This document shows, piece by piece, positions 13,951-45,786 of a stretch of DNA of 64,000 bases. The stretch's first letter is position 1; the number at the start of each line of letters is the position of its first letter. Both the position numbers and the translations under genes were made by a program. Origin of the DNA: Eledone cirrhosa (taxonomy: Eukaryota); assembly GCA_964016885.1 (NCBI GenBank), contig OZ024741.1, positions 141,174,001-141,238,000 on the forward strand, written 5' to 3'. The notes under the pieces are model-generated. The model did not search any database. It was given only the letters and a program-made list of their open reading frames with translations, and was not told the DNA's origin.

Positions 13951-13953
<3 letters not shown>

Positions 13954-14423: not shown

Positions 14424-14543
14424 CATGGAACTCTTTTAACCATCTTTTGATCTTATATTATTTATACTCCAGTCCTATAAACTGTGGAGTGCTACTTATC
14501 CGATATTGCATTGCTTTATTGTGCTACAATAAAACTCACCTCC

Positions 14544-14654
<111 letters not shown>

Positions 14655-15085: not shown

Positions 15086-18000
15086 TAAAATCCATGTGAT
15101 TAAATTGGAGGTACAGTAAATGGTCTAGCAAGTGAAGTACAGGAGCTTAGGTATATTCAATAGATGTGTCTTATAATCATTAATGGTGAATGAGACACAT
15201 GAGAACTCTAAATCCTGAACCATGTGTAACCTCAATAGCTAATTAAGACATGTGGTCTAATGGTTATGGTGTTGCATTCATGATTATAATGTGGATGGAT
15301 TCAATTCCTGGACAAGGTGACACGTGGTGTTCTTGAGCAAAATGTTGTATTTCATTTTGCTCCTCTCGAGAGTTGTGACCGGCAGATATTATTTGCAATG
15401 GAAACATTATTTCCTCGGTTCAATCAAACGAACCATTTAACGATCGATATGTAGTGGAGGCAATCCACAATATCAACCTGGGTTACCTTAACCCCAGGTC
15501 TACAAGGAATACATTTAAAACAGGATAACACCGATGTTTTGTTATTCCATTAAATTAGATTGTTATTTATATCCTTTAATCTCTTCTTACTTCCTTATCA
15601 TAACTGTTTAGTAAATTATCTACGTGTTTATCTACGCATTCGACACTTGTATCAATCTACAATCGTTTAGCAATTGACTTAGTTTCGGCATTAATAGCGT
15701 TATAAAGGTCCACATTGGTTTTCTTAATACTTTTAAATGATGTTAATTGTTAATATCAATAGGTATCTATTTTATAGAGACTCTATAGTCAAGGAGAGAG
15801 AAAAAGAAACGTTTATTAGAAGATAGGATAGTCAATATGGCTATAACTATAACGCTTATTTTGAAAGGAATTGCCGCACTTAGGAAATTTTTTATTAGTT
15901 TATCGTCTTCAAAAGGCGGTACTACTTTGATCTTATGTGAGGATATAGTAAAATGTTCAGTAGCCGTTAGAAGTAATGTAAGTTTTCGTAAGTAGAAATT
16001 CTTTTAACATACGATCTCTAATATCAACATATTTATATGTTCAAATAATGTTTTCGTTGAGGTGGGCTTCTGCTAAATCTAAGATGTAGAAGGCAGTAGA
16101 TATAAACAACTAATGCTGAGTCACATCACGAGTGAATGTCAGAAAACTAAAATGCACTTCTATTTCGCTAGTAATTATGAAGTTAAAACCATTGCTAAAT
16201 GATTAACCATTTTGATACGAAAACGCCTGAAACTGCCCATCATTGATAAAAAGAAAACCCTGCTCCTGTCCATATTTATTAAAACCTGTTAGTATACGTT
16301 TATGTAAAAACATAAGTAATGTTTCAAAGGGCTTACTAATGTAAAGCTTGCTACTAATTTACTCCATATTTTTGGTTATTTGCAAAATTCACTGAAACAT
16401 ATTGGCAGTATATTTCATTAGTAATATAAAGTCGAGTGCCGAGATATATCGATGAATACTCGTTAGTTCAAAGTTAGGATTAGCAATTAATGGCGATGTG
16501 TGTTCCAGTTGTTCTATCAACGGAACAGCTTACTCGTGAAATTAATGTGCATGTTGTCGAGGTTCCCACAGATGTGTGTACTCTTAACATAATCATCGGC
16601 GATTCAGCATAACAACATTTGAGAAAGTACAATCCAAACAGTTTCCGTTTACATAATTTCACTCACAAAGCAATCATCTTTTGACACCTAGTGGGAATGA
16701 ATACGGTGCGTAATGATGGCGAATCGAAATCCTTAATCATTCGTCTATTATTCGTCCACTAGCAAGCCATAAGTTATGAGCAATAATTACGTACATTAGA
16801 AAAAATGCTAATCTTTTACATCATCATTTCACCATGTATTACTTTCCTACCTACAAAGTATTAGCCAATCCGAGATTAGAGTATAGTACACTACACACAT
16901 GTTCTGTGCAGGTGCTGAGGTATCTCAAAAGCCAATAGAATTGATCAGAAATTCACAAGAACAATTTACTAAACATCCATATTATCACGAGCTAATGAAA
17001 TAGTTGTTCTTGCTTTGATTTGTCCCCGATCAATCTTGGTTGAGCTGAGTTATGATCAGATGTGTCCTAACCATACCCATTCCATTCTCCTCTCGGGTAA
17101 CACGTACCCAGGTTTTCCTCTTTTATGACTGTAGGGTTCAATTTAACTCTCAAGACCCTCTAGCACAATAAAACTATATTAGATAGTCATTTGTGAAAAT
17201 GAAAAAACTGCACTATGACTGCACTACATTAATATTAATGGATTTACTCTAATACAGCACATTTTCACAACAATATGTCGTCTAGTAAAGATACTATACA
17301 CATTTTGATTAAATCATATGAAACCATATTAGCAAAGACATTTTTTTAAAACAACATTACGAATGCATTACATTAACATTAAATTATTTACTCTAATGTT
17401 GAGAATTTTCACAATATTCTTTTAACTAGTAAACATCACAAAATCGTTTTAAATTTTCAAATTTTGAATTAACAAAACGGTTTTTAGATATTTTCTTCTA
17501 AATCATTACATGATGTTAAGAGTTAACGTTTTGGCTGATATTTCTAGCAGGAAACGTGTCCACCTAGACACCCTTCCACATTGGCTGCAGGTCTTTTATA
17601 ATGCAGTCTTTAGATCATCACAAATCATATCTCAAATAAAGGAATCTTATTACAGGCATGCCAATATATTCTGCTGTGTCACGAATGTAATTACAACACC
17701 CTCGCAGCTTTTCAGTAAATGGTGAATACTTAACAAAAGTTTATGGTTTACCGAGCCAAATTCTTCCCTAAAGCACGGGGGAATACTTCATGATATCAGT
17801 TATTGATACTCTGAGATTAGACATAAAATTGAATTCTCCATTACATACATTAAGCAATTCCAACAAATATTATATTATGACGACAGATTTATTGGATGGT
17901 CATTCATCTTTGCTTTGTATAATCCCTTACATACATGCATACGTACAAAGAAATATGTGCCAAATTAGATACAAATATAGAGATGCTGTGCATAGGTACC

Positions 18001-18587
18001 TCGTATATTCATTCAAGCATATATAAGAATGCAAATACATACGTGCATCCGTACTTATATAGACGTGAAAGCATGCGTACAGACGTATATAAATACATTC
18101 ATACATACATATATGAATATATAGATTCATAAACAGATTATGTATTTGTAGATGCGCGGGTGAATATGTGTGTATAGAACATGCCTGTCGATTAATTAAG
18201 ATCCTCGCCTGCTAATCATAATATGCCAGTCTTGATTCGAATACGTGTGAACTTAGACAATAGTATTATGTCATTACGATAACTTAGAGTCGACAACTGC
18301 CTTGTAAGAGAAATTGGGTAGAAGGAGGAGAGGTTGCTGAAGTTCGTCTGATATAATATAACTGTATTTTAAACTGTATCTGGCTGAATATTCCATTTGA
18401 TTGTCTATGGCAGAGTCATGACGGAATACGTGAACACTTCTACACTAATTCTATGATAAGGTAATTAGGTTGATCAACCCACTAAATATTCATTATCTAT
18501 ACGGTTTAGAGATCCATCAGCATTTACTTGGTGGGGGAACTAAATGAATCTATATGTGTGATTCAGTATTAATGGAACATATAATGA

Positions 18588-18830
18588 AGGCGCGTGGCTT
18601 AGTAGTTATGGTGTTCTGCTCACATGCATAGGTCGTGATTCTGATTCTCGGCACCCCGTTGTGTTCTTCAGCAAGACATTTTATTTCATGCTGCTCCAGT
18701 CCACTTGCCTGGAAATACTAAGTTACCATGTATTAGACTGAATCACGCTGAATCTCCCTGAGAATTACGTTATCTTTACTCGTATCTGTGCTATACTCAG
18801 CCGTAGGCATGTTAAGTATTGACCAAATGG
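18588..18830 (+). mobile_element. SINE family B
   Basis: Head GGCGCGTGGCTTAGTAGTTA (A-box-like), then GTGTTCTT.AGCAAGACA.TTTATTTCA..TGCTCCAGTCCACT and CACGCTGAATCTCCCTGAGAA.TACGTTA. Confidence 0.65.
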
Positions 18831-20299
18831 TACAATCGATTTCGGAAAGATGTTATGGGGACATTTGTCTGTAGAATGTTCAGCAATCTTCAAGGGAATT
18901 CTTGAGCAGACAGTGCTGTTGAGCCATCAGTTGGAGCACTTATTATCGATATCGATGCAGATCCATTCCAATTTAAAGAATTGTTTATAAACAGCGTACT
19001 GTCGGTAGCAGAATTCCTTGTTAGGAAACTTTCTGGAATGTGAAGAAAATGTAATGAATCTTAACATTTTGTATGTTAAAAATTGTAAATTACAAGAAGA
19101 AATCCTTCATTATTTGCAAGAGATCAGCATGGAATAATCACCCAGGCATAAATATGTGATAGGTGGTTTGACTTAATACTGATCAAAGATAATTTTATTA
19201 TTGTTCGATGGACTTCGCTAGTTTCTACGATGTGCGTTCTAATTGTCAGATCAAAGAATCAGGCTGCTCATGAAATTGTGTAAGTCTTTCACAAACACGT
19301 ATGCATTTAGATTAATTTTGAGCAGGATAGATAATTATGTTCAGTGCACATGGATTGTAGAATGTTCACCCACTTGCATATTAATTTCACGAGTAAGTTC
19401 CGCCACTGTTCAGATGTAACGTAGGTTTAACGCTCTATATATTGACAAGATTTATATTTAAGGAAACTTGCCAATGCTTTGTAAACAACCGAGTGGACGC
19501 TCTCAGATTCTATGACACCATATATGTGTTGACCCGCATCTAACCCCAACTGTACCACAATTTCACATGAAACAACAATTTCTGATCCAAACCACAAACA
19601 TGTCTTCTTGACGAACACAACATTCTATAATTTTAGCTTTGTTACTGATTTTCCACAAATCGGAGATTAATGCTATTTTCGTTTTCCTGGTTTTTTAAGA
19701 GAGAAATAAGAACTGGTTACATCAACTGTTATATAACTATTAAATATTTAACTATTTATAACAGAATTTGGAAAATTCCATCCAGTCATTATTGTAAACT
19801 GCGGATTTAGGAGACAAAAGCTAAATGCTGTAAATGCTTAATGTGTGTTTCCTGAGTTTTTCTGGAATCAACTTATCTAGGCAGTAAATTATTAATGGAT
19901 TATATTATGTTTAAATGGTTAAGATTTGTGTAAGACAATTTATTTCACAGTTTAGATTTATATCATGTCGTTGTCAACGACATACATAAAACTAAATAAA
20001 CGTATATCACTTCATCAAAGAACAACATGAAATCGGTTAGTATTGAGTTAATCTGACGAGAGTGGGTGGAATGGGATAGATAATGCGTAAATATTTCCAG
20101 CAACGTTGTAGGTGTGTTTGTATGGTGGGGCTCCTTCAATTCCAACGACGATTGTTTCAGTTGTTCGAAAAACGGAACAGTCTGCTCGTGAAATTTACAT
20201 ACATTTGGTTAATCAGTCCACAGACACGTGTACATTGAAGGTAATTCGGAGAGAAATTGACCTTGATAAATTGTAGAACAAAAGTGTCCCTTTGAATCC

Positions 20300-20378
<79 letters not shown>

Positions 20379-22420
20379 CTTTGTATTTCTAATTTTTCAT
20401 TTGTGTGTTTGTGTTTATATTCCGTATCTTAACGGTTCCACGAAAAATAAAGACCGATAAAATAAGTATCGGTCTTTAAATCATAAGTACTGAAGTGGAT
20501 ATTATCGACTAATTGAAGGTTATGCCCCAGCATGGTTACAGTCTAATGAAAAAAAAACGGTAAATAATAAAAGAATAAGTTTCCTATCCTAAATACGGGC
20601 AAGATTACAGATTCGAAGCAATAACTGTATGGTGAACTCTCTACTTGTATAAGGATTATCCCTCTCACTCACTAACCCTATCTTCTCACTCATCTTCTCT
20701 CGCTCTCTCTCTCTCCGTCATCAGTCACATCTAGTTAGGAAGTAATTCATTCTGCCTCCATCGCAATGTTTCACGATAATGTTATATCGTTTATCGGAGA
20801 GGGTAATCTGAGTGTGTGGCGGTAAATAATCGATCTGATGTGCAATATTGATAAATACCAATCAATGTTGACGTCCAGTTAAGATGGTTGTTGTGTATGT
20901 GTAAAGTGAAGAGCTATTGATCGCCTTTCGTAATGAATTCATTAATACGTGTTCGAGTAGTTTTGTACATTACCATGTACATATATTAACATATAAAGTG
21001 ACCAATACACACAGACACACACACACACGTGTATATGCGTGTTATGAAGACGCTAGGTCAAGTGGTTTGAGTGTTGAATCTCAATTATTAAGTCGTGATT
21101 TGGGTTCCAGGAACGGGTGACATATCGTACACATCAGTGAGACACTTTAGGTCATGTAGCTTCCGTCTGCTTCACCTAGAAAAAACTGAGTTGCAGCGGC
21201 ACGGGTGCTAGGTTATCGTCCTTTGCCGATATATCTATATATGTGTGTTTTGTGTGCGTGTATGCGGTTTTGGTTATGTATGTATCAGTTTGTGCTTGTT
21301 TATTATAGGGATTGTTTCTTTTGTTATCATTCGTATTCGGGTTACCTCTATTTCCAGGTCTTTATAACACATGATTTATTCGTGCACTGATACTCCGACT
21401 AGAAGGTACTTTTTTGTTAGAAATCATTATTATTGGTTGGGCGGTAATAAGCAGAGATATTGCCAGAATCGGTAGAGCGTCCAGTAAAGTGCTTTTCAAT
21501 ATTTTTACGGCTCTTTATATTTTTCGTTCACATCCAGCCAAGATCAACTTTGCCTCCCATCTCTCCGTCGTGTCGATAAAATATATCAGCCAACAACTGA
21601 GAAGATCGATTTAATCGATTTTCTGTTCCAAAGACATCACCCACACACACAGACACACACCTACAAAATAATTGCTGACCTTTTCCCAAATTCAGAAATC
21701 ATTATTATCATTATTTTTTTAAATAATAAAATACATTTTAAATAGTAGACATTCTGAAATGCTGCACCTGACTGAGATCTTAGTATGTAATTATAGTAAA
21801 TGAATTAGTCGACAAGGTAAATCATTTTCTCTCTAACACAATAAATATTATGGAACTGGACAAAACTTTCAATGAACTTCGCGACTTCGATTATCGATAA
21901 AGAATTATGTCGTGCCACAACATATTAATGTACAGTAAAGTATTGTATTCTGGAAGGAAATTTAATTATTACTGTTCGCTATTTTTCCTTGTCGCTGAAC
22001 ATATTCACATTTTGCTGTTTAGTAATTTTGACTTTAAGATATTTTAATTGAATCATTTTTATTCTTCACAATTATTTCTTATTTCCGAGTAATACACAAT
22101 ACAATACATTCTTATGAAGTCATCATAAATATATTAACCATACATACACGCATGTATAGTCTTACTATATATAGTAACTAAAGTTACTAATTGTGGAAGT
22201 GTACGTTTCTGTGTTGGATCTCCATCGGTTCCGACGACGATAGATCCTGTTGGTTCCATCAATGTGACACTGTATGAGAGCGCTGGTCAGTTGAATTAGA
22301 GATACAACTCACTCTCTTCAGCTCAGTGAACTGGAGTAAATTGAAATGAATATATCTTGCTGAAAGACAACGCACCGCTAGAAATCTTTCGATAGTGAAC
22401 CGAACACTCTAATTACTAAG

Positions 22421-22562
<142 letters not shown>

Positions 22563-25527
22563 GGTTGCGTTCCAATATGTTCTGAATTCAAATCCCGGTG
22601 AAATCAATTGTGCCATTCATCCTTCCAGAATCGATAAAATAAGGTACCAGTTATGTACTGGACTCCATATAATATCGATATTTCCCATCACAAAATTGAT
22701 TACGTTGTTCCTTAATTAGAAATCAGTATTATCCTATAATCTAGGCGCGAATCAGATTAATTAGGTTGATCTGCTCCCCATCGTAAGGTCACGAGATTGA
22801 TTCCCGAGATGTGGTGTGCTGTGTCCTTTAGGTCATGTTACTTCATTTCACTCACTTTGGAAAATATGAGTTATACCTCTAATTTTAAGAGTCAGCATTC
22901 TAACATATGTTACGTTGAATCTCCTTCAACAAATAATCTCTTTACATTCCAAGCAAGTCTCATTGTTTAGCGAGCATTCTAAATCTATAAGTAAAACCTG
23001 AGTAATTTACACAACGGTATGTTTTAGTTTCTTGTTATACATATTTTAATTTCGTATTTAACTCTGATGCTCTTGATGGAGAAAAGAATACAATGTCTCA
23101 CCCACAGTTACCGCTTATGCCAAGAGATATGAACCTATTCATTCATGAATGACTATGGGTTCTGTATCAATGACTTACTGACCATATTTGCCTCTCAGAG
23201 GCACAGGCCAGGGTAAGGTGCTTCTTTTGGAAGGCATCCGACGCCAATGAATGGAAGGCTCCTTTAACCATGACACCTATTATATCCAAGGGCAAGGCAA
23301 ATGCTGGTACCGCTTAGAATGAATGTCATCGCAAATCATATATACACTATATACATAGAGTATACATGATGTAAGACAAAGGGCGATATAGCATGATACT
23401 ACTGGTGCTGCAATTTATTTTTCGAGCTGCTTGAATTGGAGCAAGGTGAAATAAAATGTTTTGCTCAAGGACATAACATACCACCCGGATCGGAATTAAA
23501 CTCACAACTCTACGACCACTAAGCTACCCACCTTTACCTATAATTGCTTTCTATCTAACCAAACAGCACATTCGTAATAGTTTACTCATGCAATATGGCA
23601 TCTATTAAGCGTCGAACGATTTAGAAGCAGTTTCTATACTCGAATGAATACATAAATATTATGCAGTTATGTAGTCGATATTCACTCCACCATGTATTTA
23701 CTCTCCAATATATTTTTTTCCGTCTTGTGAAAAGAAATATTCTTTTCAGATAGAGAGGATAGTGGTGTCTCTAGAACTTTGGACTTAATCCATTATAGTA
23801 ACATTTCTGAGTGCAAATCTCACTGGAATCGACTCGTTCTTTAATAACTTCCTCGTCAATGAAATAAATAGCGAGATAAATTGAATCGATTTACATATTT
23901 CTCTACTGCAACAAATATTTTGTTGGTGCCAGGTGAAAGGAAATCGATACTTTTGAGCTATTCCGATGGATTCCGCCTGTGTAGAATATATTTCTATGTA
24001 GAATATATTCCTTAATCATTATATCAGTTAACACACACATGTCAAAAGATTTATTATATAAACATACTTTGCTACTCGGCATTGACAGAGAGTTGTATCT
24101 GTTTAAAATTTATAGCTAACATCTGCCCCCTTTTATAGAAATTAAAATGATTCAAGCATGTATAATATATCTAACTGCACATACATTCATACTCCATCAT
24201 ATGTGTATAGTTGTAAATTCTTTCAACACATTAAATGTTGCACTAGTACCTGTGCTTATTAACAATATAATAAATCCCTTATTAGAATAATTGGCTAAAT
24301 ACGATTGACGTTATCTGGTCAGCTTAACGTATCTGCTCCTCACTGAAGCTGATATATCAAACGATAATTCTGAATTGATAACGCCTGAGGTGAATTTACA
24401 TATATTGGCTCTTCGTCTATTGTTTTGAAATAATGGACATTAGCTATGAAATTATAGAATAATACATCTAGAATAATACACGGTAGATGTGTAGACCTCG
24501 GTTTGGTAATCAATCGCCAGATCATTTCATTCGTACACTAGAAATCAATATTCGAGGGATTTATTGATCATTCAACTTCCAAACAAAGCAAGTTACCCTA
24601 TTGATTTTCGAATAAACAGCGAGAAGTTGAATACATAAAAACTGCACGTTACTACTATTCCTCAACTAAATTCATACAAACTTTCAATATATAAATGCTA
24701 TATAAATAAATACATTTCTTTTATTTTTTTAATTTAACGCAGTTAATTATTGATAGTATATGAATGGCTTGTTTTGCTCAACGTCGTTCAACATGATTGG
24801 AATATATTTTCTTTTGAACTCAAAGGATGAACATTTTTCTATGTTCTTTCTTTACTTGTTCACGTTTCAGTCGTTTTCTATAATCTCATATATAATTCCA
24901 CTCTATGACACCGAACAAAACATCGAATATTTGTTTTGGGTAGGTGAGAATAGATTTCAGATATTTAAATAGTCTTTTTGACATAGCTCAGTCTATTTTA
25001 TCTCTCGGGAGCTACTTCGTTGCTGGGTTCAGAGACCGTCAAACCTTAAGCTTGGTATACAGCTAGTACGTATTCCATAGAACATACAAGGGCTACTTGA
25101 CTGATACTTGAATGTTAAAAATCGTGGTAATCGTGGTAAGAGCATGAAATAACTACAATAGAGTAAAAGAATACATAGTGAAATCACCGAAAACTTTCGC
25201 ATAATTTTAATTTAGTGAATCATTCAACTCAATACGGACCATGAACTGATCGTTTCCATTTTGTGTCGGTTTTCTCGGCAAAATCCGGACGAGAGCATCT
25301 CGCCTGAGAGAGGAGCACCATGAAGTGGAATGACTGAATCAGCGAGTATCGGTAGCTATCTTCTGCTGCAATGCTTTTACAATCATGTCAGATTTGGACA
25401 ATCTATATAGACCCGAGAAACAAAATATTCATTTGTTCTCCTCTTTCTTTCCAATCAGTCTACCGAAAAGTACAACAAGTTCATGATCAATCTATGTATT
25501 TTTATTATTATTTTTAGTTATATATTA

Positions 25528-26005
25528 TCTAATCTAATCTGGCTGCGTTTACACTCGCAAGAACCAGAGCCGCCCCAAGCAGCATTGGATTTGGTGTACT
25601 TCATATTTGTTTCGGTTGCTGAATACAATCAGGGGTCAATGCTTCTCCTGAAGGTCAATAGTTCTCTTCTAACTCGAGCGGGTGCGCCTTTCCATTCCCA
25701 ATTTGCATTGATCATCCGAAAATCCGCATTGTTCTCAGAACCACTACACCTGTCTCTTAATGCCTGCAGCAGCTGGAAATACTGCCACCCATTGGTTTGA
25801 CAGGATTTTCTTTTTTAGATGGCCGTTGGCTCTTATGAGTTCTTCCCCCCTTTGTCAGGTTTAGTTTTTTGTCCTGCAGTGTGTCCAAAATCACCCTCCT
25901 CACCAAGTTAACTTGGTGGGGTTGCCGGTTTAGTCACCGGCGACAAGACTATGTGACAGGTTGTACTGGGTTACACGCTACCAGTAGCACTCGAGAGTGA
26001 CCTGA
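25528..26005 (-). mobile_element. RTE-related non-autonomous element (5' UTR-like head, (ATTAG)n tail)
   Basis: Minus-strand AAACCTGACAAAGGGGG..GAACTC.TAAGAGCCAACGGCCATC resembles 42221-42268. Short tandem tail at 25528-25540. Partial second copy at 26803-26897. Confidence 0.55.
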
Positions 26006-27104
26006 CATTATATTCTAACTATATTAAAAGGTGGAACACTTATTTATGTTACATATAATGTTAGGAATTAAAAAGAATAAGGAAGGTGAGCACTGGCTGT
26101 AAACAGGTTCTCTAGGCATATCAAATCAATATATCTCAACTGTGCCCTGAGGACAAGATGTCAAATGCTGCTGCTCTGCGACATGGGGCTCTATTTTTCA
26201 AGCGTGTATGCGCTGTTGTCAACTTGGCGGAGGCAAACGACAATCCGGTACTAAAATGAAGAAATCGCTCAACTCTAGGTATTTGGATTGAAACAGTATT
26301 TTTCTCCAAATATGTATAGGCATCTTATGTTACAAATATATTATATTATATTACGTTGCTGTATAAATCGTTTCGATTACCTAAAAATATAGCAATTCAA
26401 ATTGCTCTAATCTACGCAGTTATCGAGGTATATGGTCGAATTCGATAATAATGAATATATATTCTTGCATTTTGAAAACTATTTATAGTTAGGCGTATGA
26501 CATTTTCCATTAGAGCTGGAAAATATTTGACTACTGACCAAGATATCCTCAGAATCATAAACTAAGTTTGATGTGACATAGATTATATGTATAGATATAT
26601 TAAATTGATCTACCTACCAATGACTGTCTGAAACTGCTACACGGACTCATTAAAGATAACGAAATACTTACTCAACATTTTTTGATTTAATCAGGCGTTC
26701 ATTTACGTTAAATGAACTAAGAATTTATCAGTGGATATCTCAAACTGACATCTAAAATGATTGATAAATCGGTAAGTGCCACTGCAAGCTGCTGAAATTG
26801 TGTGTTCTCAGAACCACTACACCAGTCGTTTGATGCGTGCAGCAGCTGGAAATACTGCCATCCATTGGTTTGGCAGGATTTTCTTTTTTAGATGGCCGTA
26901 ATATAGTAATATTCAAAGAATTAGGCAATGTAGAAGAACATGTTTTATTTCTTGTATTTTAAACACTACTTTTTTAGTGGAAAGGTCACCAAAAATATTA
27001 TAGAACTGTATCATAGCGTAATAAACGTCTCCATTATCAAAGGACGGGCATCAATGTGAATTAATAGAACATTATGATATTTCCTTATTACAGTTTTAGT
27101 ATAG

Positions 27105-27320
27105 GGTGGTGGTTTGGCCGAATCAGGAGGGCGTCGGACACCATGCTTTGCAGCATAAAGTTACGGCCTTTTATGATCTGAGTTCAAATCCTGCCGATAT
27201 CTACTTCGTCTTTCATTCTTTTGAGCTCGATAAGATAAAGTACCAGTAAAGTAACGAGATTGGTTGGATCGATTTTCACCTTCCGTAAATTCCTGGCTTG
27301 TGACAAAGTTAGAATTAATA
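27105..27320 (+). mobile_element. SINE family A, older subfamily
   Basis: Diverged head, B-box-like motif and GATAAAGTACCAG core. Similar old copies at about 4465, 21440, 22570, 29620, 52640, 52870, 56420 and 57090. Confidence 0.65.
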
Positions 27321-27491
27321 GGGCTGCACATACATTCATATATAGAGACAGGCAGAAAATATATAGTCTTGTGCAAAAATGTTTCTAATTGTAATTTAGG
27401 ATAACGCATCCATTGCGTCCAGATTTTTTTGTTGAGACACCACCCTTTCCATCTCTATTTCTTCTCTCACTCACCCCCTGATTCTCTTTCC

Positions 27492-27900
27492 TTCATCTAC
27501 CATCTCCCATGAATGTCTGTTTTCTGTTCAGTCCAACTGAATCAAGCAACAAAAGGAAGTTTGCGACGTGCAAATCGTGTTTTATGATGTCGTTGAGAGC
27601 TGCTTGACGTAGGAAGCGGTCGGCGCTGTTATGGCAAGATAGTGTATAAAGACCGAAAATGGCGACAGTGGACAGTAGTGGCATTTGTGTGGCTCACAGA
27701 TCCGGAGACCAAACCTCAGGGAAACGCCGATGCGGAAACTGTCGCTGTACAACTAAATAGCAAGGGTATTGCTTAAGTCAGGCACCGCTGTGGTGTTGGG
27801 AGGCGTATTAATCTGTCCGAGGCCATGTCACACTGGATGGCGTCTTATTTCATTAGGGAGGATTGGGCGTCCAAAAGGTGGCGGCCGAGTTGGTTCTGAC
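27492..27900 (-). mobile_element. Degenerate CRE/NeSL-like non-LTR fragment (zinc-knuckle region upstream of the REL endonuclease)
   Basis: Across frameshifts it reads QHHSGA*L..DSFRIGVSLRFGLRICEPHKCHYC..GLYTLSCHNSADRFLRQAALNDIIK. Confidence 0.65.
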
Positions 27901-28204
27901 ACAATCTGTCTGATAATGTGGAATTTTCGGTGAATCTCTTCAACCTATTTTCGTGTTTACCAATGCCTTGTGCGTAGAAAAACGTATGTGTGTTTTTACG
28001 TTTGTGCCTGTTCTCTCATTCGGCACTTCAACATACTTCAACAAATTCAATATATACTAGGCGCAAATTGAGCGGCTAAAATCAAAGTGGTGTCCCTGCT
28101 TGGACTCGATCTATTGACTCGAATCAGTGAATGTGTATGCGTTCATGTTCTGGTATCCTTTTTATAATTGTGTATTCATGGCTCGAGGGAATATTTGTTA
28201 TTGT

Positions 28205-28515
28205 GATCCTACGTCGGTTCTGCTGACGAGTGATCTAGTTGTTCAAACAACGCAACAACCTGCTCGTGAAATTAACGTGCAAGTGGCTGAGTATTCCACA
28301 GAAACGTGTACTCTTAGCATGGTTCATGGGGATACTCGGCGTGATACAGTTCGTAATACGTCTAGCCCTTTAAATTAACATTATAACTATTATTTTTCCA
28401 GTTGAATAGAAGGAGCAACCTGAAATAGAGAGATTTGCTCAAGACACCATGTGCTTCAGAAGTATCGAACACATGAATAGAGTGTGGCGCGTCAAGCACC
28501 CTCAGCATTAAGCTA
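28205..28515 (-). mobile_element. SINE family B
   Basis: CCTGCTCGTGAAATTAACGTGCAAGTGGCTGAGTATTCCACAG core. Confidence 0.7.
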
Positions 28516-30832
28516 AACGCATTCCAACCGATATACACTGTTCATAAGTGACGAATATATCAAATATTTCTCAAATGGTATTCCATATAATTTATTGAAA
28601 TATCATTATATAAACATGCAAATATCTTCCTGCTTAAAAACAAATGGCTTTCGTATCATTTCGACTTATTTTCCATTCCATGTTTTAGAGTTTTGAAACA
28701 TGACATCAAAAATGAATATTGGATATTGGTGCTATGCATTTTTCGCTTGTTTCAATTTCATAAGACATCAACTACAATTTATTACTATTAGCTTTTTCTT
28801 TATATTTTTATATTTTATTCGGCAGTAATTTAAGGTAGTGAAAGAACGTAAATCATTTCAGTTTAATGCTATTATTTTCTCTTCAATAACATCTATTGAT
28901 TTTCTTAAGCCATTCTCGTACGTTTTAGTAATATTTTCCTCCTTAATTACCGCATTCTGTGAAAAATGTGCAGTGTGTTATTAACAAAACAGAACATCTA
29001 TTAACAATATGCAAAAGAGCAAGTTTCAAAATATTGACATTGTAACGTCCATAATTTGATAGAAAGTAATGAATTCATATTTTTAAGAGGACTGCTTCGT
29101 TTAGCACCATAAAATAAAATAGCATTTAACAAAACATATAAGCATTATATGGTTTAAATAAAATGTTTTCTCACATAATTAGTATGTCTTAATGCTATGT
29201 ATGTATGTATGTGCGTTTGTGTCTATAAGTGTAGTGTGACATACTTATACAAACATATATATAAAAGCACTTGTACGTAATTACATGTACAACGCAAAAT
29301 CCCAATGATGAGTGAATATTAATTGTTCTTTTACTTCTTAGCATTGTTTAATATAAGAAGAAATGAATAAAATGTTATATATTTTACAATAAAAATAAAA
29401 ATAGGGAGTGGATAAACTCTACATTCTTGCTTAGACGCTATATTTCAGAGACAAGGAAACAAACGTATTGCTGGAGAAATCAGTCAACGATATGCACTGC
29501 ACCAACCATTTAACCTCGTGAGGCTTCGTCCTCAGTTTTGATGACAACATCCAGATTTAGCGCAGGAATTCTGTGGATGGTGACCGACAGAAAAAGAAAT
29601 AGAGCAATCTGTACCTGGTATTTAGTCATCTTCCGCGTCTATATGTCAGTCTATATGCCACATAGGTTAGCTTTCCCTTTCATCCTTACGAGGCCGATAA
29701 AATAAAGTACCAGACACGCACTGGAATCGATTTAATCGACTTTTCCTTCCCCAAAAATGTATTGGCCTTGTGTCTGAATCAGAAACCATTATTATTATGT
29801 CATTCATTAGAAGGGTAGGCTGGTAGTATTGTTAGAGCATCAGGCAAAATAATTTGCAGCATTTATTTACGGTCCTTTGTGTTACAAGTTCAAATCCTGT
29901 ATATCACTAGAATAACTTCCGAATAGTAAATTGTTGTACATTAATACATTATATGATGGCTATTTTGATTTTTTCTTCACACTGAAAATATTTTCTAACA
30001 TAACCTAACTGTCGATTACGGACAATGTGTTCCATTTATTTTATCAACCTCATAGCCTGCTCGTCAATTGATGGGCATGTATATGAGCATTCCACAGACA
30101 CGTGGAACCTTAACGTAAATCTCATGGGATTTCACTGTGAACCCATGCACATCAAGCCCTTTGAATTACAGTATCAAATCATATTCTACTAGCGAAGTGG
30201 ACAAGTGAATGTAAATAAAGCGTCTTGCGCACATCGCCGGGAATCGAACTCCTGCGCAAGTAGGCCAGCCACCTTCACAAATAACTTAACATTCAGTAAA
30301 TACACTTCCGTTTTAATACATTACTTCACATATGATCCCAGCCTAGTAATTAAGATTTCATTTATCATGCGACCAGAAGATTCTCTATGCTCTCAGGATT
30401 GTGTAACTTCTATCAAAATATACCTCGATGTAATAATTGAAATGAAGGGAAATTAATATCATATGTTGAAAATATCAAAATATTCACGAGTAGTGGCAAT
30501 ATTACTGTAAATTATTTCATGTCTGCAACTAAAAGAGCTTAATAATTATTGTGTTGTTGGTGTTTCCTAATCATCATTTATCAAGCAATCATAATTAAAG
30601 CCAATTGATCTATGACTGCGTACTTTTTGTCAGACAAGTTTGACAACATCTATTGTGTTTGGGGTTTTTTGTCATGTATCATTTAATCGTTTCATTCGTT
30701 AATTTTCAAATAGTTTTGAAAATATATATTTGAATTGATTTAATAATATATCGAACATTCTCATTATTAATTTATTTCGATCATTACGTGTCTAAAAGCA
30801 TGATGAAAATGTATTAGATAAATATCTTAATC

Positions 30833-32567: not shown

Positions 32568-32758
32568 ATGGTGGATTGGCAGTATCGGTAGAGGGTCGGA
32601 GGCCATGTTTTGACGTATAGAGTTACGGCCCTTGCCATTCTGAGTTCAAATCCCGCCGAGGTTAACTTTGCCTTTCATCCTTACATGGTCGATAAAATAA
32701 AGTACCAGTAATGCACTGGTTAATTGCTGGCCTTGTTGCGAACATAGAAAAAATTATT
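32568..32758 (+). mobile_element. SINE family A
   Basis: Near-consensus full copy. Confidence 0.85.
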
Positions 32759-32804
32759 AAATTCATAGTCGACACATCATACCAATCTATCATATAAGTA
32801 TCAA

Positions 32805-33062: not shown

Positions 33063-33376
33063 ATATATGTATGTGTGTGTGTATATATGTATGTGTGTGT
33101 GTATATATGTATGTGTGTGTGTATATATGTATGTGTGTGTGTATACATGTGTGTGTGTGTGTATATATATATGTGTGTGTGTGTATACATATATGTGTGT
33201 GTATATATACATGTGTGTGTATGTGTATATATATATGTTTGTGTGTATATATATATATGTCTATATATGTGTGTGTATATATGATTTGTGTGTGTGTATA
33301 TATATATATGTTTGTGTGTGTTATGTGTGTGTATGTATGTATGTATATATATATATATATATAAACATATATATAC
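32805..33376. repeat. Compound TA/TG microsatellite with a 20-bp higher-order unit
   Basis: GTATATATGTATGTGTGTGT repeated across 33061-33140. Confidence 0.9.
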
Positions 33377-33378
33377 AT

Positions 33379-34171
33379 CAGTATTTAGCGATAATCATCA
33401 TCAGTGCCTGAGGTATCTGTCAGGTTGCCAGTTCTAAAGAATGCTCAAACTGATTCAAAAATGCGGAAGTAAATTACCGCCAAAAAAAACAATACATGCG
33501 CATGACAATGAATTCTAAAAGGAATTCAGGCCACGTGGTAGAGCTCAATTGGAAATTGAAAAAATATCTGTGTGAACAACATTTGATGACCCACACAGAT
33601 ATTTTCTCGGGCAAAATAACAGAATATAAGGAACAATCAATATTCATATATAAAAAAATAAACAAAGAAAGCCTAACCTTATACCGGGAAATTCAAATCT
33701 GTTGCACCAAGAGTAAATAAATAAATACAATATCGGAGAAAGCTTTTTAGCGATACTCCGGCCAAATTCCAACTCACTCAACAAACATTAGGAAATAAGT
33801 GATTATATTCCCAATTATGCGTTCGGGGTGCTAACTAAAAGAATTGCGTGGAAAATTGGCTGTATTATTTCATATGAGACATATCGAATATATCTCTTCC
33901 CAGACGGATGTCTCGTTTCATTATAGTATTCCTACAATTTGGGTTAAATTATACCAATTTATGTAGGAGCTTGTATACCATCAATAGATATATATTCAAG
34001 TGGGCTCCTATAATTCATCAGTGGTTGCCCCAATAATACTAATATTGATAATCTAACCAACATAGTATTTAGCGATAATCATCATCAGTGCCTGAGGTAT
34101 CTGTCAGGTTGCCAGTCCAGCAGTTCTAAAGAAATGCTCAAACTGATTAAAAAATGAGGAAGTAAATTACC

Positions 34172-34174
<3 letters not shown>
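33379..34174 (-). mobile_element. Penelope-like remnant with ~105-bp terminal direct repeats between microsatellites
   Basis: 33379-33482 is repeated at 34063-34174. Internal 33735-33960 is similar to 45337-45570. CTGATGA plus a stem-loop on the minus strand near 34035-34090. Confidence 0.5.
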
Positions 34175-34210
<36 letters not shown>

Positions 34211-34363
34211 ATAAATGCTCTGAAATAGCGATATATATGTGAATATAGACATAGAATATTCGAAAATATTCTGTATGTTTATAATAAACATTTTGAAGAC
34301 CTAATCGCTATAGAATAGAATACGTCACGTATTACAATTAGATTCTCGATAAAAGCAAGGGAA

Positions 34364-34406
34364 GTAATCTACGCGTTTCATTCTTGTTAGAAATCATCAG
34401 GACTAC
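34364..34406 (-). ncRNA. Minimal type I hammerhead ribozyme (tandem unit 1)
   Basis: Exact reverse complement of 35150-35192. Confidence 0.85.
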
Positions 34407-34673
34407 ATATCCAGTGCTTTTATCGAGAATGACACAGCTAGAGACTTATAGAATACTTAGCTGTGTACAGGAACTGGTTTGAAAGAGCGGTTGCCGGTCC
34501 GGCAGAAATTAGAAATTGGAATAAATGCTCTGAAATAGCGATATATATATGAATATAGACATAGAATATTCGAAAATATTCTGTATGTTTATAATAAACA
34601 TTTTGAAGACCTAATCGCTATAGAATAGAATACGTCACGTATTACAATTAGATTCTCGATAAAAGCAAGGGAA

Positions 34674-34716
34674 GTAATCTACGCGTTTCATTCTTGTTAG
34701 AAATCATCAGGACTAC
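34674..34716 (-). ncRNA. Minimal type I hammerhead ribozyme (tandem unit 2)
   Basis: Exact reverse complement of 35150-35192, 310 bp from the previous copy. Confidence 0.85.
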
Positions 34717-35149
34717 ATATCCAGTGCTTTTATCGAGAATGACACAGCTAGAGACTTATAGAATACTTAGCTGTGTACAGGAACTGGTTTGAAAGAGCGG
34801 TTGCCGGTCCGGCAGAAATTAGAAATTGGAATAAATGCTCTGAAATAGCGATATATATGTGAATATAGACATAGAATATTCGAAAATATTCTGTATGTTT
34901 ATAATAAACATTTTGAAGACCTAATCGCTATAGAATAGAATACGTCACGTATTACAATTAGATTCTCGATAAAAGCATATTTTCGAATATTCTATGTCTA
35001 TATTCACATATATATCGCTATTTCAGAGCATTTATTCCAATTTCTAATTTCTGCCGGACCGGCAACCGCTCTTTCAAACCAGTTCCTGTACACAGCTAAG
35101 TATTCTATAAGTCTCTAGCTGTGTCATTCTCGATAAAAGCACTGGATAT

Positions 35150-35192
35150 GTAGTCCTGATGATTTCTAACAAGAATGAAACGCGTAGATTAC
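35150..35192 (+). ncRNA. Minimal type I hammerhead ribozyme
   Basis: GTAGTC-CTGATGA-TTTCTAACAAGAAT-GAAA-CGCG-TA-GATTAC. Stem I GUAGUC/GAUUAC, stem II UUCU/AGAA, palindromic ACGCGU stem III. Predicted cleavage after 35186. Enclosed by a 16-bp inverted repeat ATTCTCGATAAAAGCA/TGCTTTTATCGAGAAT. Confidence 0.85.
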
Positions 35193-36900
35193 TTCCCTTG
35201 CTTTTATCGAGAATCTAATTGTAATACGTGACGTATTCTATTCTATAGCGATTAGGTCTTCAAAATGTTTATTATAAACATACAGAATATTTTCGAATAT
35301 TCTATGTCTATATTCACATATATATTCACATATATAAGTGAACAAACGTGCATATTCAGACAGGCATTTTGGAGACTTGGCATCCTTAAGGACTGAGTGG
35401 GTGAAGAGGGTGTATATAAGTAGAAAGGTGGTGACAGGATTTCTAAATTTCTACTTGATCATTACATCGGACCGTTGGAGTATCCAAGCTGAAACTCCAA
35501 GCCAAATCCACTTTTTTTCTACTCTACACAACAGTATTAACTGCTTATTCAGATAATATTTGAACATTTTAAATATTAAGATATTTTTAAAAAGTTATAT
35601 AATTACATACATATGTGGATGGAGGGGCAAGGGTAAATGCATGTATGTGTGTTGATGTATGTATGTGTGATTCATAAATCATGAAATTGAATTTTTACCT
35701 AATCAGTGATTAACGTCCATAAACTAGAATGTAAGCAAAGAATGAAGAACAACACAACGTGAATGAAAATGAAATCAATATTTGACTTGATAATAATAGT
35801 TTTATCGTGCATAACATTGAACTACGAATGCAGAAACCAAATGGCAATCACGTAGAATGCTCAGCTTCATATATTTTCAAAATACGGTAAAAGATATTCA
35901 TAGATTTCCAATAATTAATAAGCCAATATATTTCTAAGATAGAAAGTTTAGTTTAAATTCTCTGAAACATTGTTAGAGAGTTTACTGCTCTCTGCCTGTA
36001 CAGGAGTGCCAATTTATCGATTTGAAAGAATTAACATGAAATATATTTATTTAAAAATCAAAAAAGACAATTAATTTTCGGCTCCATCACATAATCATAT
36101 AAATGCACATAAACTCACAGACACTCATATATATGGATATCCATACATACATATATATTTATATATATGTATCTATGTATGTATACATAGATAGGACAAC
36201 ACACGCTGTCTTTTCGTGGAGTAAGTTTTTAATTAATTTTTGTTTCTGAAACATCAAAATACAACAATTTTTTGGGTCACTGGACTCGGGAATGTCACGA
36301 CAGAAGTTTGTGGAAGTTACACAAATATTTTCGTATATTTTACCAGAGCAATCCTTATTTATATTTTACATTTTACATTTTACATTTACTTACATCTCAA
36401 TATAACATGGCTAAAATTCAAATTTTGCAAACAGAAGAACACGGACAAATGAACTAGAAATATCTCACTGCCCCCCCCCCCCCCCCACCACCACCACAAT
36501 AACATCTACACTCTCTTCCCACCATCACATGTCATTATCCTATCTAGACTAAAGTCCCCGACCTGTTGTCAAACTCTCTACTCTGTGTTGAATGTGTGTA
36601 TATATATATATATGTATATGTGTGTATATACATCACTCAGTCAAACGACCAGATTTCAACCCCAACACCGGCACTAATGTTTACAGCAACAACATCTTCA
36701 GAATGAATTGAAATGAACATTTACAACAACAACAACAGGGCATCAAACGATTAAAAAAAAAACAACAAACAAAAAACTCAAAATAACAAAACACACACAC
36801 ACACGCACACAACACAACAACAACATCAACTGCCACCTCCACCACCACGACCGCCGCCATCACCATCACCAGCGACCGGGCCTTAAGAAAACAACTTTAA

Positions 36901-37317
36901 TAATAATAATTGTTTCTACGTTAGGCAGAAGACCAGCAATTTACCAGTGTATTACTGGTACTTTATTTTATCGACCCCGTAAGGATGAAAGGCAAAGTTA
37001 ACCTCGGCGGGATTTGAACTCAGAATGGCAAGTGCCGTAACTCTATGCGTAACTTTAATAATAATAATTTTCTGCTTTTGGCACGGATCCAGCGACTGGT
37101 CCAGCGCATTATTGGTGCTCTCTTTTGTTGACTCCGTGGGGATGAAGTGCGAGGTTGACCTCGGCGGGATTTAAACTCAGAGCGTGAAGAGCCATAGATC
37201 TATGCTGTAAAGCAATTATAATAATTGTTTCTACGTTTGGCACAAGGCCAGCAATTATCCAGAGCATTACTGGTACTTTATCGACCCCGTAAGGATGAAA
37301 GGCAAAGCTAACCTCTG
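36901..37317 (-). mobile_element. Cluster of three head-to-tail SINE family A copies
   Basis: Copies at about 36901-37050, 37058-37213 and 37219-37317. Confidence 0.8.
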
Positions 37318-38002: not shown

Positions 38003-38345
38003 TGTCGTACGTATAAGTGTCAATAAGTGATTTTTTTTGCGCGCGCGCGGGGACATAGAAATAATCGGGCTGGATGCCCGATCGCGCAGTTAAACCACTG
38101 GGAGTGAAGAACCCCTAGCCCTAGTCAGAGCATTCTTCTAGGAGAAGGCATCTCAGGAAACTGGGTTAACTCCGACATAAAACCTGCGGCTCAGTAGTTA
38201 CCGATGATGTTGATCTTTTCTTCTTCTCGGGTTATAGCTACTGTCGCTCAGAGAGTGGGATTGGCTCAGTGCACAGTCTTTCCTCACTTTAAAAATATTC
38301 GTCACGCACAGGCATTGCACGATTGCATTAATAATTATTAATAGT

Positions 38346-38402
<57 letters not shown>

Positions 38403-38403
<1 letters not shown>

Positions 38404-38778
38404 GAAGCGTTCCAAAAAGCATGAAGGGGCCAATTTTCTTTAACCATCTCTGGAAACTTTTTGAGATAGTACCTAGTGCGCCTATGACAATCGGGACCAC
38501 TTTGACTTCATGGCAGTTCCAAATCCTTTTTCCCTCCCACTTTAAGTCCTGGTATCGGTTAATTTTCTCCCTCTCCTTCTCTTGCACTCCCGTGTCGAAT
38601 GGGCAGGCCACATCCACAATCAGGCACGATCTTTTGTCGTTGTCCAAAACCACCAGGTCAGGTCTATTGTGTTCCAGTTTCTTGTCCGTCTGTATCCTAA
38701 AATCCCACAGCACCTTCACCTGATTGTTTTCTATCACCGACTCTGGCTTATGCTCATAACCACTTCTCAGAATGTGGT
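38403..38778 (-). mobile_element. Fragment of an R4/Dong-type non-LTR retrotransposon (restriction-like endonuclease domain) nested in the RTE 5' region
   Basis: Translation YEHKPESVIEN..VLWDFRIQTD..NRPDLVV..IVDVACPFD..EKINRYQDL..VVPIVIGALG (PD-(D/E)xK-type). Flanked by (TTA)n at 38346-38403 and 38781-38824. Confidence 0.85.
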
Positions 38779-38989
38779 AAATTGTTATTATTATTATTAT
38801 TATTATTGTTACTATTATTATTACTTTTTTTTTCTTTTTTTCCCTCCAATTCAATGATGTTCCAGAACAATATAAAAGAGATAATTGGCAATTTAGGTTC
38901 TGGAACAAAAAAGATAATTGGCAATAAGGGCAGAGGCCCCAGGTTATCACAGCCTGGGCCCGCTCGTCATCGTGCCATTGTAATAGAGC

Positions 38990-41900
38990 CAAACAAGGCA
39001 TTTAGTCTTGGCTGCTGGAACGTACGGACGCTGCTTGACAGGGATTCCTTGGAGCGTCCTGAACGAAGGACCGCTCTTGTTGCAAAGGAGCTTCGACGTT
39101 ACGATCTTGACATCGTGTTTTTATATGAGACGAGGTTAGCTAGAGATGGTCATCTTACAGAATTTTGTGCAGAATATATATTCTTCTGGAAAGGAAGAGA
39201 TGACGGAACCAGAAGAGAGGCTGGGGTAGGATTTGCTGATAAGACTGTTCTTGTGAATAAATTAGAAGAATTCCCAGTAGGGATTAGTGAGCGTCTTATG
39301 TCCATGAGAATTCAGCTGGACAAAGGAAGATATGAGACCCTGGTGAGTGTGTATGCTCCAACTATGAACTCTGTCGATGAAGAAAAAGTGTCCTTTTACC
39401 ATGCCTTGAAAGGTGTTTTAAGAAATATCCCTCAGGCAGACAAAAGTCATCGTGCTTGGTGACTTTAATACTAGAGTGGGTAGGGATTTAAACACATGGA
39501 ATGTAATCGGAAGGCATGGGGTGGGAAAGTGTAACAACAATGGTATGCTCCTGCTGCAGATGTGTGAGGGGCTGGATCTGTGCGTTACCAACACCATATT
39601 CCAACAAAAGAACAAATTCAAGATCACATGGTTGCATCCTGCATCTAAGGAATGGCATCTTTTGGACTACGTCCTAGTCAGGATGATTGACAGACAGGAT
39701 GTGTAGTGTGTTCGTGCTCTTCGTGGAGCTGAGTGCTGGACGGACCACTGCCTGGTACGCGCAAAAGTGAAACTAATCACTAAACGTAAAATCCGTGCTC
39801 CTGGTGTTGCCCTGCCCAGAAGATTGAATGCTGCTCGTCTTAAGGATAAAAATGTGAAGAGGACATTGGAAGAAGAGATGCAGGCTGCAGATCTTGGTGA
39901 GGATTGGCCGACCGTTAAAAAGTCGGTTTATAATGTAGGCAGGCGTGTTCTGGGATTGGTGCAGAGAAAATATCAGCACTGGTTTAATGAGAATAATGTA
40001 CATATAGAAGACGTGTTGGGTGATAAGAGGCGTGCTCTGTCACGCTACTTGACGGCAAAACCACAGGAGAGGAATACGTTGCATGAGGAACTCAAGGATG
40101 TAAAATCACGTGTTAGGCGGAGTCTTTCTCAGATGAAGGGTCAGTGGTGGAGTGAGAAGGCTGGTGAGATACAAACTGCGACGGATTCCAATAACACAAA
40201 GCTGTTGTACAGTCTCTTGCGTGAGGTTTATGGACCGTCTTCTTCTCTGCTGACACCGCTTCGCAGCAAGGATGGCAAAGAACCTCTTCGTGACTCACAA
40301 GGAATTCTACGAAGGTGGCAAGAGCACTTTGATGATCTTTTGAATCAGCCGTCTGTCGTCAGTGAATATTTCCTCAATCTTTCCAGAAAGTCCTGTGAAA
40401 GTAGCTCTCGCAGAACCTCCGACGCTTGTGGAGGTTGCAGTGGCTATCTCGAAGCTGAACAGTGGGAGGTCTCCAGGTATGGATGGCATACATGCTGAGC
40501 TCTTACAATATGGTGGTGAGAGACTCCTGCAACATCTTCACTCTTTGTTTGGGGGCTAATGAATCCGTACCTGAGGACTGAATAGATGCAGTAATAGTGG
40601 TCTTGTACAAGGGAAAGGGTAACAGGAATGATTGTGGGAACTACAGAGGTATATCATTGCTTTCTGTCCTAGGGAAAGTTTTATGTAGGGTGCTTCTGGA
40701 CCGTTTGCTGACACACATTGCAGATTGTGTTCTTCCTGAAAGTCAATCTGGTTTTCGTGCTGGACGTGGCACAACTGATATGATCTTCTCAGCTAGACAG
40801 CTCCAGGAGAAGTGCATGGAACAAGGTTTGGATCTGTATTAGGTATTTGTCGATCTGACAAAAGCTTTCGATACTGTTAACAGAGATGCATTATGGAAGG
40901 TTCTCCAGAAACTTGGTTGCCCTGATAAGTTCCTTGCTTTTGTTATGTCATTCCATGACGACATGAAGGCTTGGGTTAATGTCGGAGGTAACATGTCGGA
41001 GCCTATCTCAGTAAAAAATGGAGTGAAACAGGGGGATATTCCAGCACCGACCCTGTTTGCCATATACTTTGCAATGGTTTTCTGTATTGCATTCAGGAAT
41101 TGCGAGCATGGTGTTTACATCCGATATCGAACATCAGGCAGCATATTTCACATCAGGCGCTTTGCTGCAAAGACAAAAGTATTTACATCAATCATAAGAG
41201 ACCTCGTGTATGCAGATGATTGCGATCTTGTAGCGCACACAGAGAGTGATATGCAGCACATTTTGAATGCATTTTCTGACGCTTGCACTGCCCTAGGATT
41301 GACTGTCAGTCTCAAGAAAACGGTCGTCATGTACCAACCTGCCCCTGGTAAGCAGTACACTGAACCAAATATCTATGTGTATGGTAAACGACTTGGAGTG
41401 GTTGATCAGTTTGTCTACCTGGGAAGCACTGTCAATCGATATAGCAACCTTGATAGTGAAATCTCACTTAGGATTAGGAAAGCAAGTGATGCTTTCGGAA
41501 AGGTAGAAAGCCGACTCTGGGGTCGGCGAGACATATGCAGGAGGACAGAGGTAAAGGTGTACAAGGCATGTGTGCTCTCTTGTCTTCTTTATGCCTGCGA
41601 GACCTGGGTCACATATCGACACCACCTTAAGCAATTGGAGCGTTTCCATCAGATGTGTCTCAGACGGATCCATGGCGTTCACTGGAGGGAGTACATCAGT
41701 GATGTCGAGATTTTGGAAAGCTGTATGTGTGACAGTATAGAAGCTCTTGAGCTTAAGCTACGACTCCGTTGGAGTGGTCACCTTGCCAGGATGAAGGATT
41801 CTAGAATACCAAAACAGCTCTTTTATGGAGAGTTACTTAAAGGAAAACGACCGCCACATAAACCAAAAAAGAGGTATAAGGATTCCTTGAAAGCCTCTTT

Positions 41901-42160
41901 GAAAGACGTTAACATCTCTGCTGATACATGGGAAAATATTGCCGCTGATCGTAATAAATGGAGAAAGACTGTATATGAGGGGAAAGTAGCCTTTGAGGCA
42001 TCTCGAATCGCATACGAGAAAGTAAAACGGTATGTGAGGAAGGGCATTGCTGTTGCACTTCCAGACGGCGAGGGTCCTCGTTGGTGCTGACATGCAGCGT
42101 CTGTGCGAGACTCTGCATAAGCAAAGCTGGACTCGAAAGTCATCTTCGCAGTCATAAAGT
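38990..42160 (+). pseudogene. RTE ORF remnant: AP endonuclease + reverse transcriptase + C2H2 zinc finger, with several frameshifts and stops
   Basis: Motifs: GCWNVRTL, ETRL, LGDFNTRVG, HLLDYVLV, WTDH (APE); YRGISLLS, QSGFR, FVDLTKAFDTVNR, GVKQGD, YADD, YLGS, LYACETW, LRWSGHLARM, GKRP (RT and downstream); CSVCARLCISKAGLESHLRSH. Breaks near 39445, 39705, 40380, 40560, 40840 and 42090. Confidence 0.92.
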
Positions 42161-45335: not shown

Positions 45336-45786
45336 CAGAGAAAGCTTTAAGCGATACTGACCAACTCCATCTCACGCAACAAACATTAGGATATACCTAA
45401 GTATAATCCCAATTTAGTGTTTGGGGTGCTAACTATATAGTATTCCGTGGATAGGTGGTTGTATTATTTTTTATTTATTTTTTATGATTAAATAAATCTC
45501 TTTCCTTCCATACGATCGTTTCGTTATAAGATTTGTACAAGTTGGGATAAATAATCTCCAGGTTATGTATATATATATACGAGCTTTCTTCTATATTCTT
45601 GCTATTGTCTGGCGTCCTTCCCTCTCCCTTTCCTTTGTTTCTATATTCCAATGAAGCATTTGCCTCCGTAAAATTGAGATTTGTTCAAGCAGTTACTCAT
45701 TGACCATTTTTAGTTTATATTTTTCTCTTTTATTTCCATTTTATTTCTCTTATATTTTCTCTTGTGTATATGTATACATACATAGA

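Follow-up and report, generated by a model that had tools for sequence, protein, structure and literature searches.

A young 310-bp tandem hammerhead family in Eledone cirrhosa with a Penelope-like insertion footprint

The Eledone cirrhosa genome holds a young family of non-coding 310-bp hammerhead repeats whose insertions carry the tail and inverted-copy footprint of Penelope-like elements (PLEs). We classify the family as a variant non-LTR retrozyme whose Penelope mechanism can be read from its insertions. The explanation that we favour, with somewhat better than even confidence, is a retrozyme likely mobilised in trans by the RT-endonuclease of a Neptune-type PLE, for which a single 310-nt RNA circle probably served as template at both strands of a cleaved (TA)n target. 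The work started from one insertion in the window, the 64,000-nucleotide stretch of contig OZ024741.1 (GCA_964016885.1) that was analysed. An earlier note on the same DNA had described this insertion as a candidate retrozyme with an inverted unit; it missed that the inversion, together with the two fixed ends, is the main mechanistic signal.

The window insertion and its ribozyme

Coordinates below are those of the window. Unit position 1 is the first base past the predicted cleavage site.

34175..34206, no strand: (AT)16 target tract at the long end (TRF)
34205..34977, minus strand: long-end arm, 773 bp or 2.5 units, spanning unit position 13 through to its fixed end (165)
34205..34230, minus strand: 'tail', unit positions 140-165, found solely at the long outer end
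34342..34430, minus strand: 16-bp inverted repeat (34342-34357 / 34415-34430) clamping the ribozyme and recurring in every unit
34364..34406, minus strand: type I hammerhead motif (motif match and covariation), predicted cleavage after 34370
34679-34370, minus strand: predicted 310-nt monomer between two predicted cuts
34674..34716, minus strand: type I hammerhead motif, predicted cleavage after 34680
34974..34977, no strand: 4-nt microhomology joining the inner (RNA 5') arm ends, unit positions 13 and 98
34974..35325, plus strand: short-end arm, 352 bp, starting at unit position 98 and wrapping round to its fixed end (130-139)
35150..35192, plus strand: type I hammerhead motif in the short-end arm; cut predicted after 35186

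TRF reports a tandem array at 34205-34977 with a period of 310, 2.5 copies and 99% match; its units differ at a single base (34549). The inverted arm (34974-35325, 352 nt) is 99% complementary to the tandem units, and a small duplication of its last bases adjoins its outer end (after 35325). The earlier description, 2.5 near-identical units plus an inverted unit, holds for the tandem part; the inverted part is a 5'-truncated second arm with a fixed end of its own. This copy is typical of the family, with end 165 at the (AT)16 tract, the other end at 139 and a 13/98 junction sharing four bases.

The motif GUAGUC-CUGAUGA-UUUCUAACAAGAAU-GAAA-CGCG-UA-GAUUAC is present three times in the window, twice on the minus strand and once on the plus strand, each time inside a 16-bp inverted-repeat clamp as first described. 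Helix I has 6 bp, helix II 4 bp and helix III 1 bp with a palindromic tetraloop. The type I motif is intact, but its assignment to the minimal PLE subtype does not stand: the helix sizes are those of the canonical metazoan build, and the minimal-hammerhead hallmark, a G10.1-C11.1 pair plus one additional base following position 9, is lacking, with U-U (or A-U) at 10.1-11.1. An Rfam scan of the window insertion returned nothing at the gathering score. The best sub-threshold match was Hammerhead_HH9 (19.2 bits against 52 required, E 0.18); miRNA matches by E-value alone were rejected, since they stem from the inverted arms and from runs of TA.

The unit contains 34% G+C (106/310), and the longest Met-ORF of the tandem unit is 30 aa, in agreement with the claim of no ORF. 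Its circular MFE is -67.8 kcal/mol (z -4.1), and 0/150 shuffles folded as low. The six hairpin word pairs listed earlier are all exact reverse complements; five form in the circular MFE structure, and ATGTTTA/TAAACAT is absent from it. Cofolding of two ribozyme regions predicts the suggested dimer pairing through ACGCGU, and the two predicted cleavages would free exactly 310 nt, as the note had it.

Self-cleavage of this ribozyme is a prediction. The U-U at the base of helix II, raised earlier as a worry about activity, weighs less in view of an active precedent and of its recurrence. Axolotl HHR_Amex2 shares this U-U and self-cleaves, more readily in dimeric form (PMC7229834, as excerpted). 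The U-U is also found in one sister family and in an autonomous PLE, and 19 of 98 insertions have A-U instead. For Xenopus, 8/9 hammerhead dimers are reported not to have cleaved (10.64898/2026.07.22.740005, in the part used here).

Base pairing is conserved beyond the family. In an alignment of ten rows, which are related (about three lineages) and whose helices were chosen from the window's fold, 95% of cells pair, and every slid control is far lower. Compensatory changes occur in 12/27 pairs, including helix II, the clamp (5/11 scored pairs, in sister families) and the core pair C3-G8, which becomes U3-A8, a covariation reported for PLE hammerheads (PMC4209133, in excerpt). L082 was left out as a rearranged copy, and the counted pairs do not include those of the 214-248 hairpin and helix I, which align poorly across sister families.

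Within the family, the 12 invariant core bases carry 0/143 array-wide variants versus 5/134 single-unit variants; in so young a family this conservation is not significant alone (0/31 distinct variants, where some 1.2 would be expected). Four array-wide variants are commoner than all others (25, 20, 19 and 16 insertions), and every one of them lies within unit positions 284-295, at N7, at 10.1 (U to A, giving an A-U pair) and in loop II. Their concentration in a 12-nt ribozyme stretch is possibly tuning under selection.

Family size and two-armed layout

The exact 31-nt ribozyme core has 4,587 copies in the 3.0-Gb genome and its reversed control has none, so the window motif is not a chance occurrence. 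The exact long end followed by ATATA has 1,051 copies (control, 0). Both counts are exact pattern matches. Since just 137 of 871 motifs in sampled insertions have the exact window core, the family must be larger than the core count; a rough estimate is 9,000-29,000 units in 1,000-3,300 insertions. Single-unit variants number 134 in 267,941 bases (5.0e-4 per base). These figures bear out a young, multi-copy, non-coding hammerhead tandem element, as had been proposed from the window. Sister families at about 65-70% identity occur in the fetched loci and have the same two end positions. Other tandem type I hammerhead families, with a palindromic CUAG loop III, were seen at L073, L078, L082, L107, L171 and L172; the base of helix II is U-U in some and G-C in others.

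The mapped set comprises 98 insertions selected for a long end that continues into ATATA: the window copy and 97 from contig C1. Left unscored was L099, its long-end arm being too short. Two inverted arms with RNA 3' ends outward are present in 91/98. The second arm ends at unit position 130-140, which is 26-35 nt short of the first, in 88 of these 91; of the other three, two extend past the fetched stretch and the third carries a local duplication. Among the 7 single-arm insertions, one runs off its stretch and two end in assembly gaps. The 29 insertions added later, within the 98, repeat the pattern (28 two-armed, 27 with a partner end at 130-140). The element base at the short end is 131 in 36/87 insertions; this end is ambiguous within the TA run, and the tail is therefore given as 26-35 nt. 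As a control for end-based choice, ten insertions were selected by their ribozyme core instead. Their outer ends, 18 of them visible, were all placed at 139 or 165-170, and 9/10 insertions adjoin (TA)n. L034 lies at a unique-sequence site, where its short end is reduced by an apparent 13-bp duplication.

The inner junctions fall at all unit positions, mostly with a few-base overlap. Median arm lengths are 1.3 and 1.0 kb, with arms of up to at least 8.5 kb, and 139/189 arms are longer than two units. Arm ends seemed to cluster at unit positions 13-22 (14 versus 4.2, scan P 0.017), but the excess did not repeat in the 29 new insertions (2 versus 1.85) and was discarded. At L037:3099-3370, 272 bp of unrelated, GC-richer sequence lies between the arms, perhaps captured template. 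At L042, L052, L104 and L124, insertions stand tail to tail in TA tracts following autonomous PLE 3' ends, which suggests that PLE ends act as hotspots.

Long inverted arms are also a feature of foldback or MITE-like DNA elements, and an assembly artefact can merely look inverted; two sampled arrays do end in assembly gaps. A foldback element, however, has equal terminal inverted repeats and a fixed core, whereas the mapped insertions have outer ends unequal by a constant tail, independent arm lengths, and a junction and haplotype particular to each locus. Against an artefact, 0.69-1.00 of the sampled words are present in 20 sequencing runs (16 studies, 17 organism labels), a measure of word containment in which organism labels and junctions are taken as they stand; no RNA run is listed among the 20. 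We regard both forms of this reading as already largely refuted and extremely improbable.

Twin priming of L1 joins two target-primed cDNAs by microhomology into an inversion. The 310-bp insertions resemble it in their microhomology-joined inversion and, under the favoured explanation, in the two target-primed cDNAs. Unlike L1 products, their arms start at fixed internal sites 26-35 nt apart, copy the same sequence and have no poly(A).

The copied template

Under the favoured explanation, tandem arrays would be transcribed, two hammerheads would pair via ACGCGU and cut out the 310-nt monomer, and a host ligase would close it into a circle. The PLE protein would cut both target strands and prime two cDNAs, at unit positions 165 and 130-139. 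Both cDNAs would run round the template for a variable distance, and their ends would be joined by microhomology.

Arms cross the cleavage site 898 times, and 5/186 inner ends lie within 5 nt of it versus 5.9 expected, so the template was continuous there. Variation is mostly array-wide: 125 of 143 array-wide variants are seen in both arms, and 76 well-covered arrays fall into 28 haplotypes. Private array-wide variants number 14; were a change in one unit of the parent to spread to the whole daughter array, 12-15 would be expected. In-register, unit-specific variants common to both arms occur at 2 loci (L089 and L108), versus 9-35 expected for a linear multimer. This last comparison covers 70,387 doubly covered bases with 68 unshared events; it assumes that single-unit variants are real and heritable, and fails if they are assembly errors. 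The array-wide haplotypes, the private variants and the scarcity of in-register loci together favour a reiterated monomer as the main route. The main template was probably such a monomer, most simply a circle.

The same PLE-driven, two-armed insertion could instead have copied uncut linear multimers from homogeneous source arrays, with the hammerhead cutting rarely or at another stage and circles as by-products. The absence of an end pile-up at the cleavage site fits this equally well, and the anole PLE uses chiefly unprocessed RNA in vitro, according to the portion of PMC11167929 used here. The two in-register loci also speak for it: in both arms of L108, and in register, two units of one haplotype give way to another haplotype, while L089 has one variant in unit 1 of both arms. 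Both need a multimer template or a joint template switch. As a general route, however, uncut multimers would require at least 28 separately homogenised sources plus the private variants and predict several times more in-register loci than were seen; arms would also be expected to shrink each generation without a reiteration step. We consider this account unlikely for the bulk of the family; a minority of insertions likely used uncut multimers or two templates. Two loci (L084 and L116) have arm-specific variants, which also tell against a pure version of the monomer route.

Li et al. 2026 discuss unequal crossing-over for vertebrate retrozymes, and short two-armed PLE-type insertions could likewise have been expanded later into arrays at the DNA level. 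Variants repeat in scattered units in the two longest arrays (L093 and L076), showing that DNA-level shuffling also occurs, and L071 has a duplicated junction. Yet the length of most arms (139/189 beyond two units) contrasts with the low single-unit divergence, the two inverted arms have a common haplotype, and inner junctions are spread over the unit as for truncated cDNA. Later expansion is thus an improbable source of the arrays.

A reiterated monomer need not be a covalent circle: the RT could jump from the 5' end to the 3' end of a cut linear monomer. Such jumping would account for the array-wide haplotypes, and array-wide indels are limited to single added nucleotides 2-4 nt past the cut site, in 7/98 insertions. 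These 1-nt changes are identical in every unit and shared between loci, however, as inherited changes are and random jump scars are not, and the site is crossed freely with no excess of stops. We give this variant little credence and retain the circle as the simplest template. An RNA-editing scar, in the form of an A-to-G excess among the array-wide variants (8 A>G versus 4 T>C, P 0.11), is not supported; tolerance of G-U in stems explains it equally.

Penelope-like elements and known systems

Autonomous PLEs co-exist with the 310-bp family. The genome contains 10,596 GIY-YIG candidates, of which 150 were scored, and 4/5 ORFs scanned have RVT_1 and GIY-YIG. One family, b (P0002), encodes RVT_1 with a C-terminal GIY-YIG and has 5,901 exact ribozyme copies. 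Its hammerhead has U-U at the base of helix II, a one-pair helix III and a palindromic tetraloop, as in the 310-bp unit; measured from the cut site, its copies end near +124 and +157, and both kinds of end occur, one on each arm, in the two-armed copy L175. The link to PLEs suggested by the note is thus supported, by a shared two-armed and tailed footprint and by abundant Neptune-like PLEs of the same hammerhead build and end spacing. Homology of the unit to an autonomous PLE pLTR was not found in 50 GIY-YIG loci (of the 10,596 candidates) or in the 3' regions of seven PLE families. Because no sequence aligns between the unit and the seven families, the PLE partner is a candidate by geometry only. 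Family b was tried as a homologous partner (score 56 versus a shuffle maximum of 47) and rejected, the match resting on TA runs.

On contig C1, P0002 copies are often tiny inverted pairs with cores 91-133 nt apart, five of them at exactly 112. Both arms of these pairs may run off a fixed 5' end that lies some 40 nt upstream from the core. CCAAT- and TATA-like words lie just above this putative end at L164, and it may be the transcription start of uncut RNA. Another PLE family, P0001 (L170:6100-6135), has a hammerhead with a CCGG loop III and a U3-A8 core like that of older sister families of the 310-bp unit.

The excerpts of PMC11167929 drawn on here describe a PLE protein that cuts and extends both target strands and starts at two internal RNA sites bounding a 30-40-bp genomic tail. 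They also report that the anole PLE hammerhead is dispensable for insertion in vitro, where unprocessed RNA is the main substrate. PLE insertions are described as inverted 5'-truncated copies with a tail at one end and a (TA)n bias (PMC8557442, in part). The 310-bp insertions match on each count: two alternative 3' ends with a 26-35-nt tail, an inverted 5'-truncated copy (91/98) and microsatellite targets. They resemble EN+ PLEs (anole Poseidon PAc, PMC11167929; Neptune/Naiad, PMC8557442), as these are portrayed in the same excerpts, in two 3' ends a short tail apart, the inverted truncated copy, (TA)n targets and a hammerhead about 130-165 nt upstream of the ends. Unlike them, the family has no ORF, and its arms are pure multimers of one 310-nt unit; inversion is found in >90% of insertions, against 'often' in EN+ PLEs. 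Non-autonomous multicopy Chlamys PLE derivatives are mentioned in the same excerpts (PMC11167929/PMC8557442). The minimal hammerheads of PLEs (PMC4209133, in excerpt) share a palindromic 15.2-16.2/loop 3, predicted dimer action and U3-A8 in relatives, and differ in the 10.1-11.1 pair and in helix sizes, 'canonical' in the 310-nt unit.

The family also has the traits of non-LTR retrozymes: a tandem monomer of 310 nt (range 170-400 nt), GC below 45%, no coding capacity, dispersed multiple copies, and a type I hammerhead with intact core in each unit, as judged by motif, helices and covariation with Rfam sub-threshold. Metazoan retrozymes (coral, mussel, axolotl; PMC7229834, as excerpted) likewise have a non-coding unit with one type I hammerhead per tandem repeat; thousands of copies and co-existing PLEs are described there and in 10.64898/2026.07.22.740005, also used in part. 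Axolotl HHR_Amex1 has the same helix III as the 310-bp unit (PMC7229834). The two sources, in the same parts, describe head-to-tail arrays, whereas paired inverted arms with two fixed ends mark the 310-bp family. Circular RNAs are shown in PMC7229834, and the 310-bp family is known here from DNA alone. Searches of the open-access literature listed no paper on a two-armed retrozyme or a cephalopod retrozyme.

In the excerpts of PMC7229834, mobilisation of retrozymes by PLEs from circles is proposed, not shown. It is supported by co-occurrence and pLTR trees in a vertebrate survey (10.64898/2026.07.22.740005), and in the parts of both papers used here the mobilising enzyme of animal retrozymes and the circle as template remain proposals. 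How PLEs form inverted structures is named as an open task (PMC8557442, in excerpt). The 310-nt family offers a substrate with nucleotide-level predictions (starts at 165 and 130-139 on both strands of a (TA)n target). Its genome also supplies young candidate enzymes and >1,000 natural insertions whose variants separate a circular from a linear template. More tentatively, and with less than even confidence, we suggest twin rolling-circle reverse transcription: a dimeric PLE enzyme would start at two sites 26-35 nt apart on one ribozyme-made 310-nt circle and write outward from both strands of a (TA)n break, with the ribozyme under selection and the family near-identical in runs labelled with 17 organisms. 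If so, each insertion would record in the genome how a circle the size of a viroid replicates by way of DNA.

Several other elements lie in the window. Directly left of the insertion, between TA tracts, is an 800-bp element (33376-34175) with direct repeats of about 110 bp at its ends (90% identical), each containing CUGAUGA without a GAAA box. Its middle part matches window 45338-45569, L175 and L112, and tblastn of two PLE proteins gave no match to it. At 8594-8618, two CUGAUGA motifs stand back to back on opposite strands beside a microsatellite, resembling a short two-armed hammerhead element at L170:7695-7905 and L178:3620-3826. A frameshifted LINE with RVT_1 (38701-42090, E 2.8e-18) is, we assume, RTE-like, and a minus-strand fragment at 38198-39001, which has no Pfam hit, is presumably of the restriction-like endonuclease type. 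A 157-bp repeat (36899-37315, 2.7 copies), with an inverted copy 4 kb off at 32606-32759, looks like an abundant SINE-type repeat.
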